From: an uncultured Alphaproteobacteria bacterium
GTDB lineage: Bacteria > Pseudomonadota > Alphaproteobacteria > Rhizobiales > Aestuariivirgaceae
DNA length: 64,000 nt
Assembly: GCA_937870685.1 (NCBI GenBank)
Contig: CALMZX010000144.1
Span: 859-64,858 of the forward strand
Direction: 5' to 3'
Position numbers and translations under genes: made by a program. This document shows positions 26,073 to 47,102 of the stretch, piece by piece (the first letter of the stretch is position 1; every line of letters starts with the position of its first letter). The notes under the pieces were generated by a model that was not told where the DNA came from, did not search any database, and saw nothing but the letters and a program-made list of their open reading frames with translations.

Positions 26073-27462
26073 GCGCGGGGCCAAGGGCCTGCGCCTGGCG
26101 GCGGTCAATGCCGCGGCGCGGGAATTCGGCCTGATGCGCGGGCAGCGGCTGGCGGATGCCCGTGCCGCCGTGCCCGACCTTCTGAGCGAGGCGCATGAGC
26201 CGGAGCAGGATACGGCGAGTCTCCTCGGCCTGTGCCGCTGGATGGAGCGCTACAGCCCGTGGGTGGCGCCCGACCCGCCGGACGGCCTTCTCATGGAGGT
26301 GACCGGCATTCCCCATCTTTTCGGCGGCGAGGCGGCCATGCTGGCGGGCCTGAAGGCGCGGCTGACCGGTTATGGCTTCACGGCGCGCAGCGCCTGCGCC
26401 GGAACCATCGGCGCCGCCTGGGCACTGGCGCGCTACGGGCAGGACGGTGACGACAGCCTCAACGCTCTGCCGGTGGAGGCCTTGCGCATTGATGATGCCG
26501 CCGCCCGCACCCTGCGGCGACTCGGGCTCAAGAGCATCGGCGCGCTCACCAGCCTGCCACGGGCGAGCCTCGCCCGGCGCTTCCGGGGTGAAAGCATCCA
26601 CGAGAATGTGCTGTTGCGCCTCGACGAGCTGCTGGGCACGCGGGCCGAGCCGCTCAATGCCATCAACCCGCCGGGGTCGGTGATGGCACACCGGGCCTTC
26701 ATGGAACCGGTGATCACCCATGAGGGGCTGGTGAGCGTGCTGCGCGGGCTTTCGGGCGAGGTGGCCCGGGCGCTGGAGGCGCGTGGCGAAGGGGCGCTGC
26801 GTCTCATCCTCAAGCTGTTCCGCAGCGACGGGGGGCGGGTGCAGGTGCCGGTGGGCCTGACCGCGCCATCACATGAGGGCGGGCATCTCTTCCGCCTGCT
26901 CTCGCCCCGGCTTGAGACGCTTGATGCGGGCTTCGGCATTGATGCCATGACGCTGGAGGTGCGCGAGGCGGGGGCCGCCGTGGCGCGGCAGTATGGTTTC
27001 ATGGAAGAGAGTGCCGACACCAGCCTCTCCCAGCTCAATGACCGGGTGATGAACCGGCAGGGGCAGGAGATCACGCAGCTTGCCCCGGTTGAAAGCCACA
27101 TTCCGGAACGCTCGGAAGAGGCCCGTGCCATCGGCGCGGTCCTGCCTGCGACTGTGGGCGGCCTGCCGGAGCGGCCGCTGATGATCTTTGCCCCGCCGCA
27201 GCCGGCGCGCGTCATTGCCGCTGTTCCCGATGGCCCGCCGATGTCGCTCACCTGGCGGCGGGTGACGCGGCGCATTCTCCGTCATGCCGGGCCGGAGCGC
27301 ATCGCGCCGGAGTGGTGGCGCGGCGAAACGGGTGAGCGGCCGCGCGACTACTACATGGTGGAGGACGAGCAGGGCCGCCGCTACTGGCTGTTCCGCGAGG
27401 GGCTCTACGGCGAGGAGGCAGGCCCGCCGCCAAAATGGTTCGTGCACGGATTATCGGCGTGA
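25957..27462 (+). CDS. imuB: ImuB (inactive Y-family polymerase)
   Basis: RYSPWVAPDPPDGL, LFGGE, LPVEALRI, GPERIAPEWW, RDYY.VEDEQGRRYWLFR. Confidence 0.93.
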   Translation: MRRLVSLWFPAFPVERFIRARRKARAPVPPPSLPFALVERGAKGLRLAAVNAAAREFGLMRGQRLADARAAVPDLLSEAHEPEQDTASLLGLCRWMERYSPWVAPDPPDGLLMEVTGIPHLFGGEAAMLAGLKARLTGYGFTARSACAGTIGAAWALARYGQDGDDSLNALPVEALRIDDAAARTLRRLGLKSIGALTSLPRASLARRFRGESIHENVLLRLDELLGTRAEPLNAINPPGSVMAHRAFMEPVITHEGLVSVLRGLSGEVARALEARGEGALRLILKLFRSDGGRVQVPVGLTAPSHEGGHLFRLLSPRLETLDAGFGIDAMTLEVREAGAAVARQYGFMEESADTSLSQLNDRVMNRQGQEITQLAPVESHIPERSEEARAIGAVLPATVGGLPERPLMIFAPPQPARVIAAVPDGPPMSLTWRRVTRRILRHAGPERIAPEWWRGETGERPRDYYMVEDEQGRRYWLFREGLYGEEAGPPPKWFVHGLSA

Positions 27463-27469
27463 GACTGCC

Positions 27470-30400
27470 ATGAGCCGCTATGCCGAACTCGCCACAGCCA
27501 CGAACTTCTCCTTCCTGCATGGCGGTTCCCATGCCGAGGAACTGGTGTTGCAGGCCAAACACTTGGGGATCGCGGCGCTGGCCGTGACTGACCGCAACAG
27601 CTTTGCCGGAATCGTCCGGGCCCACGGGGCGGCGAAGGATGCGGACTTGCGCTTCGTGGTTGGCGTGCGGCTGGTGCTCGAGGACGGATGCGAACTGCTC
27701 GCCTGGCCCACGGACCGGCAGGCCTATGGCCGCTTGTGCCGCCTGCTCTCGCTGGGGCAACGGCGGGCGGAAAAGGGCGGCTGCATCCTCGCGCTGGCGG
27801 ATGTCTGTGAACATGCTGAGGGCACGCTCTTCGCCCTGCCACAGGCGCATGTGGCGCAGCTGGGGGACGTGCGGCGGCTGCTTCCGGCGCCACTCTATCT
27901 GGCGCTCTCCTGCCGCTTCGATGGCCGCGACCGCACCCGGCTGGCGGAGGCGGCCGCCGTGGCGCGGGCACAGGGCGCAGGCCTTCTGGCCGTGAATGAC
28001 GTGCTCTATCACCATCCGGACCGCCGCCCCTTGCAGGACGTGCTCACCTGCATCCGCGAGAAGGTGACGATTGCCGAGGCGGGCTACAGGCTGCAGGCCA
28101 ATGCCGAGCGGCATCTCAAGACGCCGGATGAAATGGCGCGGCTGTTCCGGGATTATCCCGAAGCGCTCGCCAACACGCTTGTGATCACGGAGGCCTGCCG
28201 CTTCTCGCTCGATGAACTGCGCTACGAATATCCGGAAGAGCCGGTGCCACAGGGCCAGGATCCGCAAGGCTATCTGGAACATCTGGCGCGGGAAGGTGCC
28301 ATGGAGCGCTATCCGCAAGGTGTTCCCGCCAAGGTGCGCCAGAACATCGCCAAGGAACTGGCGCTGATCCGCAAGCTCAACTACGCGCCCTACTTCCTCA
28401 CCGTTTATGACATCGTGCGCTTTGCCCGCAGCCTTGATCCGCCGATCCTCTGCCAGGGGCGGGGTTCGGCGGCCAATTCCACGGTCTGCTATGTGATCGG
28501 CATCACGGCGGTTGATCCCAACCAGATCGATCTCCTGTTCGAGCGCTTCATCTCGGAGGAGCGCAAGGAACCGCCGGACATTGATGTCGATTTCGAGCAC
28601 GAGCGGCGCGAGGAGGTGATCCAGTATCTCTACCGCCGCTATGGCCGGGAGCGGGCAGGCCTCGCCGCCACGGTGATCACCTATCGCGGGCGCTCGGCAC
28701 TGCGCGAGGTGGGGAAAGTGATGGGACTTTCGGAAGACGTGACCGGGGCACTCGCCGGCTCGGTCTGGGGCATGATGCCGGAGGAGATGCAGGAGAAGCG
28801 GCTGAAGGAGATCGGGCTTGATCCGGATGATCCGCTGCTCGCCCGCGTGCTGGAACTGACGGGCGAGATTGCCGGCTTCCCGCGCCATCTCTCGCAGCAT
28901 GTGGGCGGCTTCATCCTGACACGCGAGCGGCTGGACGAGACGGTGCCCATCGGCAATGCGGCCATGGAAGACCGCACCTTCATCGAATGGGACAAGGACG
29001 ACATTGACACGCTGGGCATGCTCAAGGTGGATGTGCTGGCCTTGGGCATGCTCACTTGCATCCGCAAGAGTTTCGAGCTGATCGAGGCCTGGCACGGGCA
29101 GCGCTACATGCTCGCCACCGTGCCGCGCGAGGACCGGACTGTGTATGACATGCTGTGCAAGGCCGACTCGGTCGGTGTCTTCCAGGTGGAATCGCGGGCC
29201 CAGATGAACATGCTGCCGCGCCTCAAACCGCGTTGCTTCTATGATCTGGTGATCGAGGTGGCGATCGTGCGGCCCGGCCCGATCCAGGGTGACATGGTGC
29301 ATCCCTATCTCAGGCGGCGCGATGGCATTGAGGCGGAGGATTATCCGGCACCGCATCCGGACTTCGGGCCGCCGGATGAATTGCGGCAGGTGCTGGGCCG
29401 CACCAAGGGTGTGCCCTTGTTCCAGGAGCAGGCGATGAAGCTCGCCATGGTGGCGGCGGAGTTCACACCTGGCGAACTGAACGAGTTGCGCAAGGCCATG
29501 GCCACCTTCCGGCGGCGCGGCACCATTGGGCGGCTGGAACAGAAAATGGTGAGCCGCATGGTGGAACGCGGCTACGATGCCGGCTTCGCGGCGCGCTGCT
29601 TCAACCAGATCAAGGGCTTCGGCGAATACGGCTTCCCGGAAAGCCACGCCGCGAGCTTCGCGCATCTGGTCTATGTCTCGGCCTGGCTGAAGCGCCACCA
29701 CCCGGCAGTGTTCGCCTGTGCGCTGCTGAATTCACAACCCATGGGCTTCTATGCCCCGGCGCAGATCGTGCGGGACGCGCGCGAGCATGGGGTTGAGGTG
29801 CTGCCGGTGGATGTGAGTCATTCGCAGTGGGATTCGGTGCTGGAGGAAAGGCCCCCCTCAGTCCTTCGGACAGCTCCCCCAACAAGTTGGGGGAGCGTGA
29901 TGAAACGCCCTCCCCCAGCTTTGCTGGGGGAGGTGCCCAACGGGCGGAGGGGGTCCCTTTGCCTGCGCCTCGGCTTTCGTGAGGTGGATGGGGTGCGGGA
30001 GGGGGATGTCGTGTCCATTCTCCCCTCCCCGCAAGGGCGAGGGAGGACAACAACACTGGCCGAAATGGCGGCGCTTCTCCCCCACTCCGCCCTCGAAAAA
30101 CTCGCTGCTGCCGATTGCTTCCGGTCGCTGGGTCTCGACCGCAGGCAGGCGTTGTGGGAGGTGACGGCGCTGGCCAAGGCGCGGACTCCCTTGCCGCTCT
30201 TCGCCCATGCTGATGCGAAGGAGCAGGGCATGGAAGCAGCGGTGCAACTGCCGGAGATGCCGCTCGCCGAGCATGTGGTCAACGACTACCAGACGGTGAA
30301 GCTGTCGCTGAAGGCGCATCCCATGTCCTTCCTGCGGGGGCGTTGTGCGGCTGAAAAGGTGACGGACAACGGCGTGCTCAAGTCGCTGCGCAATGGCCGC

Positions 30401-30799
30401 GCCGTGACTGTGGCGGGCGTGGTGCTGGTGCGGCAGCGGCCGGGCTCGGCCAAGGGAGTTGTCTTCCTCACGCTGGAAGACGAGTTCTCCGTCTGCAACG
30501 CGGTGATCTGGCCGGATGTGCTGGAGGCGCACCGCGCCACGGTGATGGGCGCGCGGCTGATGCTGATCCGCGGCCGGGTGCAACGCTCGGGCGACATCAT
30601 CCATGTGGTCGCCAGCCGCATCGAGGACAAGACCTTCTGGCTCACGTCACTCACGGAAGACGGCCTCACCCTGCGTGGCACCGTGGCGCGCGCCGATGAG
30701 GTGAAGAAGCCGGGGCCGGACCCGGCGCAGTACCAGCAAAGCTCAACCCGGCACCCCCGCAATGTGCGGGTGTTGCCGAAGAGCCGGGATTTTCATTGA
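27470..30799 (+). CDS. dnaE2: Error-prone DNA polymerase III alpha (contains in-frame palindromic repeat insertion)
   Basis: NFSFLHGGSH PHP domain, GRGSAANS, PPDIDVDFE, LSQHVGG, YGFPESHAASF, OB fold, C-terminal SRDFH. Confidence 0.96.
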   Translation: MSRYAELATATNFSFLHGGSHAEELVLQAKHLGIAALAVTDRNSFAGIVRAHGAAKDADLRFVVGVRLVLEDGCELLAWPTDRQAYGRLCRLLSLGQRRAEKGGCILALADVCEHAEGTLFALPQAHVAQLGDVRRLLPAPLYLALSCRFDGRDRTRLAEAAAVARAQGAGLLAVNDVLYHHPDRRPLQDVLTCIREKVTIAEAGYRLQANAERHLKTPDEMARLFRDYPEALANTLVITEACRFSLDELRYEYPEEPVPQGQDPQGYLEHLAREGAMERYPQGVPAKVRQNIAKELALIRKLNYAPYFLTVYDIVRFARSLDPPILCQGRGSAANSTVCYVIGITAVDPNQIDLLFERFISEERKEPPDIDVDFEHERREEVIQYLYRRYGRERAGLAATVITYRGRSALREVGKVMGLSEDVTGALAGSVWGMMPEEMQEKRLKEIGLDPDDPLLARVLELTGEIAGFPRHLSQHVGGFILTRERLDETVPIGNAAMEDRTFIEWDKDDIDTLGMLKVDVLALGMLTCIRKSFELIEAWHGQRYMLATVPREDRTVYDMLCKADSVGVFQVESRAQMNMLPRLKPRCFYDLVIEVAIVRPGPIQGDMVHPYLRRRDGIEAEDYPAPHPDFGPPDELRQVLGRTKGVPLFQEQAMKLAMVAAEFTPGELNELRKAMATFRRRGTIGRLEQKMVSRMVERGYDAGFAARCFNQIKGFGEYGFPESHAASFAHLVYVSAWLKRHHPAVFACALLNSQPMGFYAPAQIVRDAREHGVEVLPVDVSHSQWDSVLEERPPSVLRTAPPTSWGSVMKRPPPALLGEVPNGRRGSLCLRLGFREVDGVREGDVVSILPSPQGRGRTTTLAEMAALLPHSALEKLAAADCFRSLGLDRRQALWEVTALAKARTPLPLFAHADAKEQGMEAAVQLPEMPLAEHVVNDYQTVKLSLKAHPMSFLRGRCAAEKVTDNGVLKSLRNGRAVTVAGVVLVRQRPGSAKGVVFLTLEDEFSVCNAVIWPDVLEAHRATVMGARLMLIRGRVQRSGDIIHVVASRIEDKTFWLTSLTEDGLTLRGTVARADEVKKPGPDPAQYQQSSTRHPRNVRVLPKSRDFH
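29847..29960. repeat. Bipartite palindromic repeat copy 1 (A + inverted B), inside dnaE2
   Basis: 29851-29897 is the exact 47-nt reverse complement of 46395-46441; the B half matches 46337-46382 and 37600-37645. Confidence 0.9.
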
Positions 30800-37599: not shown

Positions 37600-37737
37600 C
37601 CCCCTCCGGCCTGTCGGCCACCTCCCCCAACGAGTTGGGGGAGGGCATTTGACCAGCACCACGCTATGGCAATGAGACAACGCATACAATCACGCTCCCT
37701 CAACTTGTTGGAGGAGCTGTCCGAAGGACTGAGGGGG
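37600..37737. repeat. Bipartite palindromic repeat copy 2 (between convergent genes, longer spacer)
   Basis: B half at 37600-37645; inverted A half at 37693-37737 (43/45 identical to copy 3). Confidence 0.88.
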
Positions 37738-44083: not shown

Positions 44084-44850
44084 GTCCCCTTCGTCATACG
44101 CACCGGTATCCCCGCCTTTGCCATGGCGTCCTTGGCCTGCGCGATCGTAAAGGTTCCGAAGTGGAAAATCGAGGCGGCGAGCACCGCTGTGGCGTGGCCG
44201 TCCCTGATACCTTCGGCCAAGTGGTCGAGCGTGCCGACACCGCCCGAGGCGATGACGGGGATGTTCACGGCGTCGGCGATGGCGCGGGTGAGGGCGATAT
44301 TGAAGCCCTTGCCCGTACCATCACGATCCATTGACGTGAGCAGGATTTCGCCTGCGCCCAGGGCTTCCACCGCGCGGGCAAACTGCACGGCGTCGATACC
44401 GGTTTCCTTGCGCCCGCCGTGGGTGAAGATTTCATACTTGCCCGGTGCCACTTCCTTTGCGTCGATGGCGACGACGATGCACTGGCTACCGAATTTCTCC
44501 GCCGCCTCCCTGACGAACTGGCGGTTGGCGACGGCAGCGGAATTGATCGAAACCTTGTCGGCACCGGCGAGAAGAAGGGCGCGGATATCGTCCAGCGTGC
44601 GCACGCCGCCACCGACGGTCAGCGGCATGAAGCAGGCCTCCGCCGTGCGGCGCACCACATCCAGCATGGTGCCGCGACCTTCGTGGGTGGCGGTGATGTC
44701 GAGGAAGCAAAGTTCATCGGCGCCGGCCTTGTCATAGGCCTTGGCGGCTTCCACAGGATCGCCCGCATCCACGAGGTTCACGAAGTTGACGCCCTTGACG
44801 ACGCGGCCGTCCTTGACGTCGAGGCAGGGAATGACGCGCATCTTCAGCAT
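44080..44850 (-). CDS. hisF: Imidazole glycerol phosphate synthase cyclase subunit
   Basis: [38 protein letters not shown]. Confidence 0.97.
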
Positions 44851-45599
44851 CAGCGGCCTCCGGCGACACGCAAGGTCGTGCCCGTGATGTAGCTTGCGGC
44901 ATCGCTCGCCATGAAGAGAATGGCCTCGGCGATTTCCTCCGGCTCGCCGATCCTCTGCATGGGGATGGTCGGGCGGATGCGTTCCACGCGCGCCACGTCT
45001 CCGGTGGAGCGTTCGTGGATGTCGGTCAGCGTCATGCCGGGGGTGACGGAGACGACACGGATGCCTTCCATGGCGACTTCCTTGGCAAGACCGGTGGTGA
45101 GGGAATCGATGGCGCCCTTGCTGGCGGCATACCAGACATATTCACCGGGACTGCCGAGCAGGGCGGCGGCAGAGGAAATGTTGACGATGACGCCGCCCTT
45201 GCCGCCGTTGCGGGTGGACATGTGCTTCACCGCCTCGCGGGCCACGTAGATGGCGCCCGTGGTGTTGATGGCAATGGTGTCGGCGATCACCTGCGGATCG
45301 GCTTCATCCAGGCGGCTGGACTTGCCAGTGATGCCAGCGTTGTTCACCACCACATCGATGCTTCCGAAACTCAAGGCGGTCTGGCGGAAGAGGCGCTCGA
45401 TGTCGTCGAGCTTCGCCATGTCGCCCTGGAAAGCCAGCGCCATGCCGCCATCCGTGCGGATGTCCTCGCAGAGACCTTCCGCTGCGGCGCGGTCAGCCAC
45501 ATAGTTCACGACCACCCTGTAGCCGCGCTGGGCGGCGAGGCGGGCAGCCGCGGCACCGATGCCGCGGCTGCCGCCAGTGATGAGCATGACCTTGTTCAT
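44850..45599 (-). CDS. Short-chain dehydrogenase/reductase
   Basis: [21 protein letters not shown]. Confidence 0.92.
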
Positions 45600-46327
45600 G
45601 CGGCCTCCGCGATCAGTTTCAGGGCTTCGCCTGCATCAACGCGGCCATCATAGAGGGCGCGGCCGGTGATGGCCCCCTCCAGCTTGCGCGCGTCGGGCTG
45701 CAACATGCGGCGGATATCGGCCAGCGAGGCCAGTCCGCCCGAGGCGATGACGGGAATGGACACGGCATCAGACAACGCGATGGTCGCATCCCAGTTGATG
45801 CCTGTCAGCACCCCGTCGCGGTCGATGTCGGTGTAGATGATGGCGGCAACACCGGCACCCTCAAACTTCTGCGCCATCTCGATGACGCCGAGAGACGAGG
45901 CTTCGGCCCAGCCTTCGACCGCAACCTTGCCGCCCTTGGCGTCAATGCCGACGGCGACCTTGCCGGGGAAGAGCCTGCAGGCCTCCTTCACGAGGCCCGG
46001 ATCGCGCACGGCGACTGTGCCGAGAATAACACGGGCGAGGCCCTTGGACAGCCAGCTTTCAATGTGGGCCAGGGTGCGGATGCCGCCGCCCAGTTGCACC
46101 GGATTTTTCGTCGCCTTGAGGATGGCCTCGACAGCGGCACCATTCACCGATTGTCCGGCGAAGGCGCCGTTCAGGTCAACGACATGCAGCCACGTGAAGC
46201 CCTGCTGCTCGAAGGCCAGCGCCTGTGCCGCAGGATCATCATTGTAAATAGTGGCCTCACGCATATCGCCCAGCTTGAGGCGCACGCACTTGCCGTCCTT
46301 CAGGTCGATGGCGGGGAAGAGGATCAT
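45596..46327 (-). CDS. hisA: ProFAR isomerase
   Basis: [34 protein letters not shown]. Confidence 0.96.
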
Positions 46328-46452
46328 GTGGAAGGGCCCCCTCCGGCCTTCGGCCACCTCCCCCAGCAAAGCTGAGGGAGGGTGAAACCCCGCGCGCTCC
46401 CCCAACTTGTTGGGGGAGCTGTCCGAAGGACTGAGGGGGGCAATTGGTTCAT
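46324..46452 (-). CDS. 42-aa repeat-derived mini-ORF overlapping the hisH stop and the hisA start (translation unproven)
   Basis: [42 protein letters not shown]; ATGA overlaps at both ends; below the ORF-track cut-off. Confidence 0.35.
46334..46441. repeat. Bipartite palindromic repeat copy 3 (between hisH and hisA)
   Basis: B half at 46337-46382, inverted A half at 46395-46441; inverted homologue of 29851-29957. Confidence 0.9.
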
Positions 46453-47102
46453 GGCTTCCACCTGAGGAAATTGGCGATGAGGCGCAGGCCCAGCTCCTGG
46501 CTCTTTTCGGGGTGAAATTGCGTGCCCACGAGGTTTTCATAGCCCACCATGGCGGTGACGGCGCCGCCGTAGTCGGTGGTGGCGATCAGGTCTTCGGGCA
46601 GGGTGGGTTCGAGGTGATAGGAGTGCACGAAATAAGCGTGCAGGCCGTTCTCGCCGGTGGGAATGTCCTGCAACACGGGATGGTCGGAATGGAGCTTCAG
46701 CGTGTTCCAGCCCATGTGCGGAATCTTGAGTGACGGATCATTTGGCGTGATGCGCACGACATCGCCCGCGACCCAGCCCAGGCCCTGGGTGGTTTCATGT
46801 TCAAGGCCGCGCGTCGCCATCAATTGCATGCCGACACAAATGCCGAGGAAGGGACGGCCGAGGCCGATCACCTGCTGCTGCAGGACCTCGCGCATGCCAT
46901 CAACGGCGTTGAGGCCGTCGCGGCAATCCCTGAAGGCACCGACGCCCGGCAGGACGATGCGGTCTGCCTTCGCCACCTCGTCGGCCTTGCTGGTGACGAT
47001 GATCTTGCCCTTGATGCCATGGTCTGCGGCGGCGCGTTCAAAAGCCTTGTGGGCGGAATGCAGGTTGCCGGAGCCGTAGTCGATGATGACGGTCTTCATC
47101 AT
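46449..47102 (-). CDS. hisH: Imidazole glycerol phosphate synthase glutaminase subunit
   Basis: [35 protein letters not shown]. Confidence 0.96.

Follow-up and report, generated by a model that had tools for sequence, protein, structure and literature searches.

The junction of hisH and hisA studied here belongs to the his operon of a 64,000-nucleotide stretch of DNA (the window), which corresponds to C144:859-64858 of an Aestuariivirga source genome of 3.29 Mb, 155 contigs and 62% GC. Both genes are encoded on the minus strand. The hisH gene (46449..47102, 217 aa, ending ...RWKP*), which encodes the glutaminase subunit of imidazole glycerol phosphate synthase, was identified from the list of open reading frames (ORFs) and by full-length alignment to the hisH of relatives. 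The product of hisA (45596..46327, 243 aa) has an N-terminus that aligns from residue 1 in about 30 relatives. The 3' end of hisH reads TGG AAG CCA TGA, and its stop codon overlaps the ATG (46452-46450) of a mini-ORF of 42 codons (46324..46452, minus strand), which starts at -1 relative to the hisH stop and stops at +1 relative to the hisA start. The TGA of the mini-ORF (46326-46324) in turn overlaps the hisA ATG (46327-46325), and the two overlaps lie within an upstream (46449..46453) and a downstream (46324..46328) copy of CATGA. The initial annotation had described both copies as well as the mini-ORF, and the sequence and the ORF list bear this out, with the copies read on the minus strand at 46453-46449 and 46328-46324. 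A Shine-Dalgarno-like AGGTGG is found in the 3' end of hisH (46458..46463, minus strand), 5 nt 5' of the ATG at 46452.

Between the two CATGA copies, and again read on the minus strand, lies a palindromic repeat with a conserved core of ~103 nt (46337-46439). The core begins with module L (CCCCCTCAGTCCTTCGGACAGCTCCCCCAACAAGTTGGGGGAGCG, 46395..46439), which is 100% identical to the consensus module of its family and contains two small hairpins, continues with a variable central loop (46382..46394, delimited by an alignment of 22 full copies) and ends with module R (46337..46381), an imperfect inverted copy of L with 96% identity to the consensus. The 3' end of module R is the Shine-Dalgarno-like motif GGAGGGGG (46344-46337), located 9-12 nt 5' of the hisA ATG, with GGAGG 12 nt and GGGGG 9 nt before this start codon. 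The CATGA copies do not abut the core and are separated from it by 8-9 nt of non-core sequence. On the hisH side this sequence is ACCAATTGC (46440..46448, 9 nt), a non-consensus flank found nowhere else in the genome. The hisA side has CCCTTCCA (46329..46336, 8 nt), which forms the outer flank of an extended palindrome; a few other copies have the same flank, which therefore belongs to the extended palindrome of a subfamily. An inverted repeat search and the predicted fold both find CCCTTCCA to be complementary to GGTGGAAG in the 3' end of hisH (46465-46455).

The arms of the palindrome (46337-46369 and 46407-46439) are 33 nt long and 85% complementary, and they contain two perfect or near-perfect 11-bp hairpins. 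For the his region of 161 nt the predicted fold has a free energy of -81.5 kcal/mol (z = -3.1 against shuffles). It pairs GGAGGGGG with a 5' CCCCCCTC and also pairs the hisA leader CCCTTCCAC, while the hisA ATG itself is unpaired. A scan of the whole window with Rfam covariance models gave no match at the gathering score. The core at this junction has no stop codon in any of its three forward frames and all three reverse frames are closed. The open frame as such is thus uninformative, and what counts is the orientation (1/2) and the length phase (1/3), which gives a chance expectation of about 1 in 6 for the his arrangement alone. Upstream of its start, the hisA frame likewise runs without a stop across the entire repeat as far as an ATG within hisH (ORF 45596..46540, minus strand, 314 aa), and automated gene calling might give HisA a spurious N-terminal extension that overlaps hisH. 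We considered a HisH-HisA fusion or read-through as well, but rejected it: the hisH frame is open past its stop codon, yet it is not the hisA frame.

The repeat belongs to a family with ~42 loci and 77 modules in the source genome, comprising full doublets and single L modules. The 22 aligned full copies share one layout, in which an L module is followed by a variable loop of ~10-60 nt and an R module ending in GGAGGGGG, the modules being 45 nt each and inverted relative to one another. In some copies the palindrome is longer by (G)AAGG(G)...(C)CCTT(C), an extension that the his copy has solely towards hisA (CCCTTCC). Matches to an exact 27-mer of module L are restricted to Aestuariivirga and to unclassified Hyphomicrobiales and alphaproteobacterial MAGs. 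Two further family loci lie in the window. One of them is intergenic (37600..37737, minus strand) and consists of an L module with a degenerate partner. The other is a second full copy (29853..29953, plus strand) which is inserted in frame within dnaE2 (27284..30799, plus strand). The initial annotation had noted that the mini-ORF shares a peptide segment with the DnaE2 insertion, and both indeed read the same frame of the same module. It had also called this frame match merely suggestive by itself, a caution with which our estimate for the his copy agrees. In the second half of the repeat the frame that is read differs between copies.

With its terminal inverted repeats, small size and lack of own coding capacity, the element is REPIN- or MITE-like. 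Like REPs and REPINs, it forms dispersed imperfect palindromes, with inverted doublets that make a long hairpin, decaying singlets and a mostly extragenic location near gene ends. It differs from them in that the sole RAYT-like gene found in the assembly, which is 92% complete, is flanked by a different palindrome. This gene, at C2:3015-3695 (minus strand), is the single match to the Y1 transposase family (PF01797) and is not flanked by the studied repeat. The IS200/RAYT-like transposase has GTGACACGTCAC-type palindromes on both sides, and gene and palindromes together look like a REP/RAYT pair of their own that has no relation to the studied repeat. To our knowledge, classical REPs have not been described as translated bridges. 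The Rickettsia palindromic elements resemble the studied family in being palindromic repeats found in frame within coding genes, as is the dnaE2 copy. They belong, however, to another taxon and an unrelated sequence family, and they are in-frame insertions into coding sequences rather than bridges between a stop and a start codon.

Many copies in the source genome lie within 0-25 nt of stop codons at gene ends, convergent pairs included. Between convergent genes the copies fill the entire intergenic space, 2-13 nt from both stop codons, for example at C115:2632-2769, C6:16039-16175, C57:13303-13439 and C48:15810-15854, and these may be bidirectional terminators. In two further copies (C126:16409-16550 and C106:1304-1466) the PSVLRT frame of the repeat runs without a stop into the predicted gene that follows, and at C126 this frame starts on a GTGA overlapping the upstream stop codon. 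In these cases the repeat may encode an N-terminal extension, or the call of a short downstream gene may be spurious.

We examined about 40 relatives with HisA as the query. The hisH/hisA site is empty in 17 loci of the same genus, with a spacing of -4, and also in genome G044 (genomes of relatives are given by our own labels). The empty site reads ...TGG(A/C)(A/G)(G/A)CC(A/G)TGATCC..., with a 4-nt overlap of ATGA or GTGA, and (C)ATGA is doubled at the his junction in the source genome alone. From the empty overlaps in relatives we conclude that the tetranucleotide of stop and start codon was duplicated on insertion. The initial annotation had proposed an ancestral ATGA overlap and had named the junctions of relatives as the place where this could be refuted; the proposal holds in all 17 same-genus loci. 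It had further proposed a target duplication of 5 bp. The doubling of (C)ATGA relative to the empty sites stands, but its exact length is less certain, as 4 or 5 bp both fit at the his junction and elsewhere only ATG, or ATG and one base, is doubled. At a junction of an ABC ATPase and its permease ATGA is duplicated, and at proS/lolE TGA or A is the most that can be inferred. In the relatives' empty sites, (A/C)GGTGG...CC(A/G)TGA directly precedes hisA. At empty sites AGGTGG is found 5 nt upstream of the overlapped start codon, and in the source genome it precedes the mini-ORF. The mini-ORF has therefore taken over the old initiation region of hisA, and AGGTGG (46458..46463) would act as its Shine-Dalgarno sequence.

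The source genome, for which we used our own codon-model gene calls, contains more bridges of this kind. The studied family has two more copies arranged in this way, at C121:6116-6216 (proS/lolE) and at C145:21422-21558 (ABC ATPase/permease), and repeats of other families form bridges, for example, between the genes of a Mo-oxidoreductase large subunit and its FeS subunit and between moxR and a VWA gene. We surveyed four ancestrally overlapped junctions across species, namely hisH/hisA, proS/lolE, ABC ATPase/permease and Mo-oxidoreductase/FeS subunit. The latter three were chosen because the source genome has bridges there, and for this reason our tests count the sites of other genomes only. 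At proS/lolE, where the ancestral state is TGATG or TAATG (-1), a full bridge is present in G000 and G019, the ORF of G044 stops 7 nt before the start codon and G024 has none. At the ABC junction (ancestrally TGATG or ATGA) all five filled sites are bridged (G000, G007, G011, G044 and G016), by visibly different inserts. At the Mo-oxidoreductase junction, with an ancestral ATGA in about 19 species, eight of nine sites have full bridges with spacers of 139-199 nt, all equal to 1 modulo 3. The inserts there also belong to visibly different repeat families, and the one exception is G044, in which the upstream stop codon is TAA.

Leaving the source genome aside, a full bridge from the upstream stop to the downstream start is thus found in 15 of 18 filled sites at the three junctions besides hisH/hisA (binomial p = 1.9e-5 against 1/3). 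When pairs of the same family at one junction are collapsed, 11 of 14 are bridged (p = 7e-4). Four pairs of same-family inserts, each pair at one junction, have length differences of 21, 0, 3 and 12 nt, and every one of these is a multiple of 3. As controls we used junctions that are not overlapped in the relevant clade, namely atpD/atpC (+5), fhs/folD (+1 to +4) and purC/purS (+0 to +8). None of their 30 filled sites has a bridge, and their spacer lengths modulo 3 are uniformly distributed (10/7/13). A spacer equal to 1 modulo 3 is found in 10 of 12 overlapped sites but in only 7 of 30 control sites (Fisher p = 0.001). GGAG, GAGG or AGGA occurs within 17 nt upstream of the start codon in 20 of the 30 control sites, mostly between the repeat and the ATG. 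The purC/purS junction seemed at first to speak against the pattern, as an overlapped junction with six filled sites and no bridge. We rejected this reading, as the filled sites are all in the clade with an empty spacing of +0 to +8. The three control junctions (loci L210-L297) are hot spots for repeats, which are found there in 6-13 species each. Closely related species carry visibly different insert families at these hot spots, which reflects either recurrent insertion or the replacement of one element by another.

Within the source genome alone the signal is weak. Full bridges are found there in 3 of 18 spacers with the studied repeat and in 26 of 865 others (p = 0.019), and of the 20 structured spacers flanked on both sides by start and stop contexts only 8 are in phase. 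The signal is thus weak for the genome-wide enrichment of doubly coupled frames that the initial annotation had suggested looking for. The out-of-phase structured spacers mostly have canonical Shine-Dalgarno sequences and their gene pairs are not obviously coupled. Between co-directional genes the forward, stop-free orientation is favoured (27 versus 11, p = 0.014). Other genomes contributed 80 loci of the family, and of the 16 forward co-directional copies among them only 1 forms a full bridge; bridging thus belongs to the class of site and not to the element.

Taken together with the empty sites, these comparisons lead us to think it probable that a mobile non-coding palindrome entered the ATGA of hisH/hisA, duplicated the tetranucleotide and persists as a translated bridge. 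The upstream copy would keep the old initiation region of hisA (AGGTGG-N5-ATG overlapping the hisH stop), so that ribosomes finishing hisH would start the 42-codon mini-ORF instead of hisA. Translation of the mini-ORF would unwind the palindrome, which otherwise may sequester GGAGGGGG and most of the hisA leader, and termination on the TGA of the hisA overlap would be followed by re-initiation at the hisA ATG, at a spacing of -4. The peptide of the mini-ORF would be a by-product. We infer each of these steps, the translation, the melting of the structure and the re-initiation, from sequence. The most likely route appears to be termination-reinitiation twice, from the hisH stop to the mini-ORF start and from the mini-ORF stop to the hisA start. 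The insertion could persist because its stop-free orientation and a spacer equal to 1 modulo 3 end the ORF on the hisA start; in the two other phases, translation from the retained start would extend the N-terminus of HisA or cross the hisA start out of frame. In a closely related variant, translation from the retained start would be unavoidable and would have to end on the hisA start, and the same data fit both. The 'coupling bridge' of the initial annotation thus finds comparative support in the chained ORFs at the hisH/hisA junction of other species and in the contrast between the 15 of 18 filled sites and the controls. This cross-species bias and its lack at control junctions make selection for translation through the insert well supported, as far as genome comparison can tell. 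Inserts appear to be tolerated in one of two ways: the downstream gene has a Shine-Dalgarno sequence of its own, whether retained or gained, or a bridge forms where the overlapped start codon has been duplicated.

One alternative does without the mini-ORF. The repeat's terminal GGAGGGGG might act as a Shine-Dalgarno sequence from which hisA is initiated directly, and the mini-ORF might be a coincidence in a stop-poor, GC-rich element. The three open forward frames of the core would fit such a neutral accident, as would GGAGG and GGGGG at their distances from the hisA ATG, the weak phase test within the source genome and the dependence of most copies elsewhere on their own Shine-Dalgarno sequence. 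Several bridge sites also have an SD-like GGAGG 5-12 nt before the start codon that could be used, so direct initiation could contribute. Nevertheless, we consider an accident unlikely. It does not account for the phase bias, 15 of 18 at ancestrally overlapped junctions against 7 of 30 at controls, the SD-like motif is base-paired in the predicted structure, and the bridges at the ABC junction of G011, G044 and G007 are without any Shine-Dalgarno sequence.

A different question is whether the phase arises from the insertion mechanism and not from selection. If the elements target start codons or ATGA with a duplication of 3-5 bp, the phase could follow from their length classes. The start codon (ATG, or ATG and one base) is indeed doubled at every filled overlapped site examined except two, which are proS/lolE in G000 and the Mo-oxidoreductase site with the TAA stop in G044, and MIRUs are described as inserting at start codons. 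On the other hand, inserts of several visibly different families, with spacers from 49 to 199 nt, are all equal to 1 modulo 3 at overlapped junctions, the same families are uniform in phase at the controls, and in-frame copies within coding sequence such as that in dnaE2 require a different length class. We therefore regard such a by-product of insertion as improbable.

We give marginally less credence to a role at the RNA level, in which the palindrome would be an attenuator, stabiliser or RNase III site within the operon that sets the ratio of hisH to hisA, with the ORF being irrelevant. The very stable predicted structure would suit this role, and so would the many copies close to stop codons, convergent gene ends included. 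REP elements near stop codons reportedly affect the translation of the upstream gene. Yet an RNA element of this kind leaves the phase bias and the exact placement of the stop on the start codon unexplained. That the 42-aa product is a functional small protein is highly improbable, as nothing except the open frame speaks for it, its sequence is dictated by a repeat whose second half is read in different frames across copies, bridge peptides elsewhere derive from different repeat families and are mutually dissimilar, and no cross-species amino-acid conservation under purifying selection was seen.

The translated bridge, which we prefer over these alternatives, has precedents in other systems. 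MIRUs are direct, often tandem, units of 46-101 bp in Mycobacterium. As summarised in a 2025 article in J Bacteriol (PMC12548453), they are short intra-operon repeats oriented with the genes (Supply et al. 1997), and a MIRU small ORF is coupled, at a spacing of -4, to the gene whose start codon was the insertion site. The same article gives the interpretation that this coupling minimises the cost of insertion (PMC12548453). The his element is similar to a MIRU in that its ORF overlaps the stop and start codons of co-oriented flanking genes. It is different in being an imperfect palindrome of inverted 45-nt modules in an alphaproteobacterium, single at its site with no tandem array, and without sequence relation to MIRUs.

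A second precedent are the short ORFs of integron attC sites and ORF-11/ORF-18 of attI1 (Hanau-Bercot 2002, Jacquier 2009, reviewed in PMC8876359). In this review's account, a short ORF across the stem-loop-forming attC or attI1 is proposed to carry ribosomes by termination-reinitiation, which for ORF-11 was shown by mutagenesis, and the integron short ORFs relieve a structural barrier and drive a downstream gene without an initiation region of its own (PMC8876359). However, attC is the recombination site of a platform, whereas the his palindrome is a dispersed repeat in a chromosomal his operon with no apparent integrase or cassette context, and we regard attC as a mechanistic analogue only. 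Our literature search found no account of such bridges for REPIN- or MITE-like palindromes in alphaproteobacteria. The underlying principle is not new, since MIRUs and the attC short ORFs precede it; the advance is in the breadth and in the different type of element.

The most valuable part of our results is the replicated natural experiment and not the single his copy. The his copy illustrates that a selfish palindrome may settle at the point of an operon under the strongest constraint and leave the operon intact, and the replicated comparison provides evidence of selection on the ribosome hand-over at overlapping stop and start codons itself. We lean, if only narrowly, towards a general rule for Aestuariivirga, and possibly for compact genomes generally, that a structured repeat or a gene in a -4 or -1 overlap is retained only as a bridge ORF. 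If this is true, several repeat families are filtered by one rule, and such sites amount to a naturally replicated experiment on the strength of selection for termination-reinitiation coupling. The rule would further account for a group of small ORFs and N-terminal 'extensions' that are missing from annotations or wrongly annotated. Repeat-derived mini-ORFs deserve flagging, as gene callers miss or fuse them, and the spacer phase at filled overlap junctions offers a simple pan-genome statistic for the strength of translational coupling.

The hisH/hisA junction is also filled in other species, and in every such species RTGA overlaps link the ORFs into a chain whose last TGA is that of the hisA start. 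In G011 and G022 a different palindromic repeat is found, with spacers of 181 and 160 nt and bridges of 62 and 55 codons whose GTG start overlaps the hisH stop and whose TGA overlaps the hisA ATG. G016 has a VOC-family gene that is overlapped at both ends (GTGA ... TCATGA). In G006 a VOC gene is followed by a repeat ORF of 76 codons with ATGA at each end. In G054 a repeat ORF begins on the GTGA of the hisH stop and its TGA overlaps the ATG of a VOC gene, after which further repeat sequence ends at the TTG start of hisA. Other genes are found in G031 and G007, likewise ending on the TGA of the hisA ATGA. A VOC/glyoxalase-family gene has thus entered this junction in several Aestuariivirga species and is chained by GTGA and ATGA overlaps at three loci (L033, L040 and L359, in G006, G016 and G054), with repeat-derived mini-ORFs beside it in two of them (L033 and L359). 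In the window itself, hisA and hisF are separated by a short-chain dehydrogenase gene (44850..45599, minus strand), which shares 4 nt with hisA (45596-45599) and 1 nt with hisF (44850). This gene is a further insert in the his operon whose junctions have stayed overlapped.
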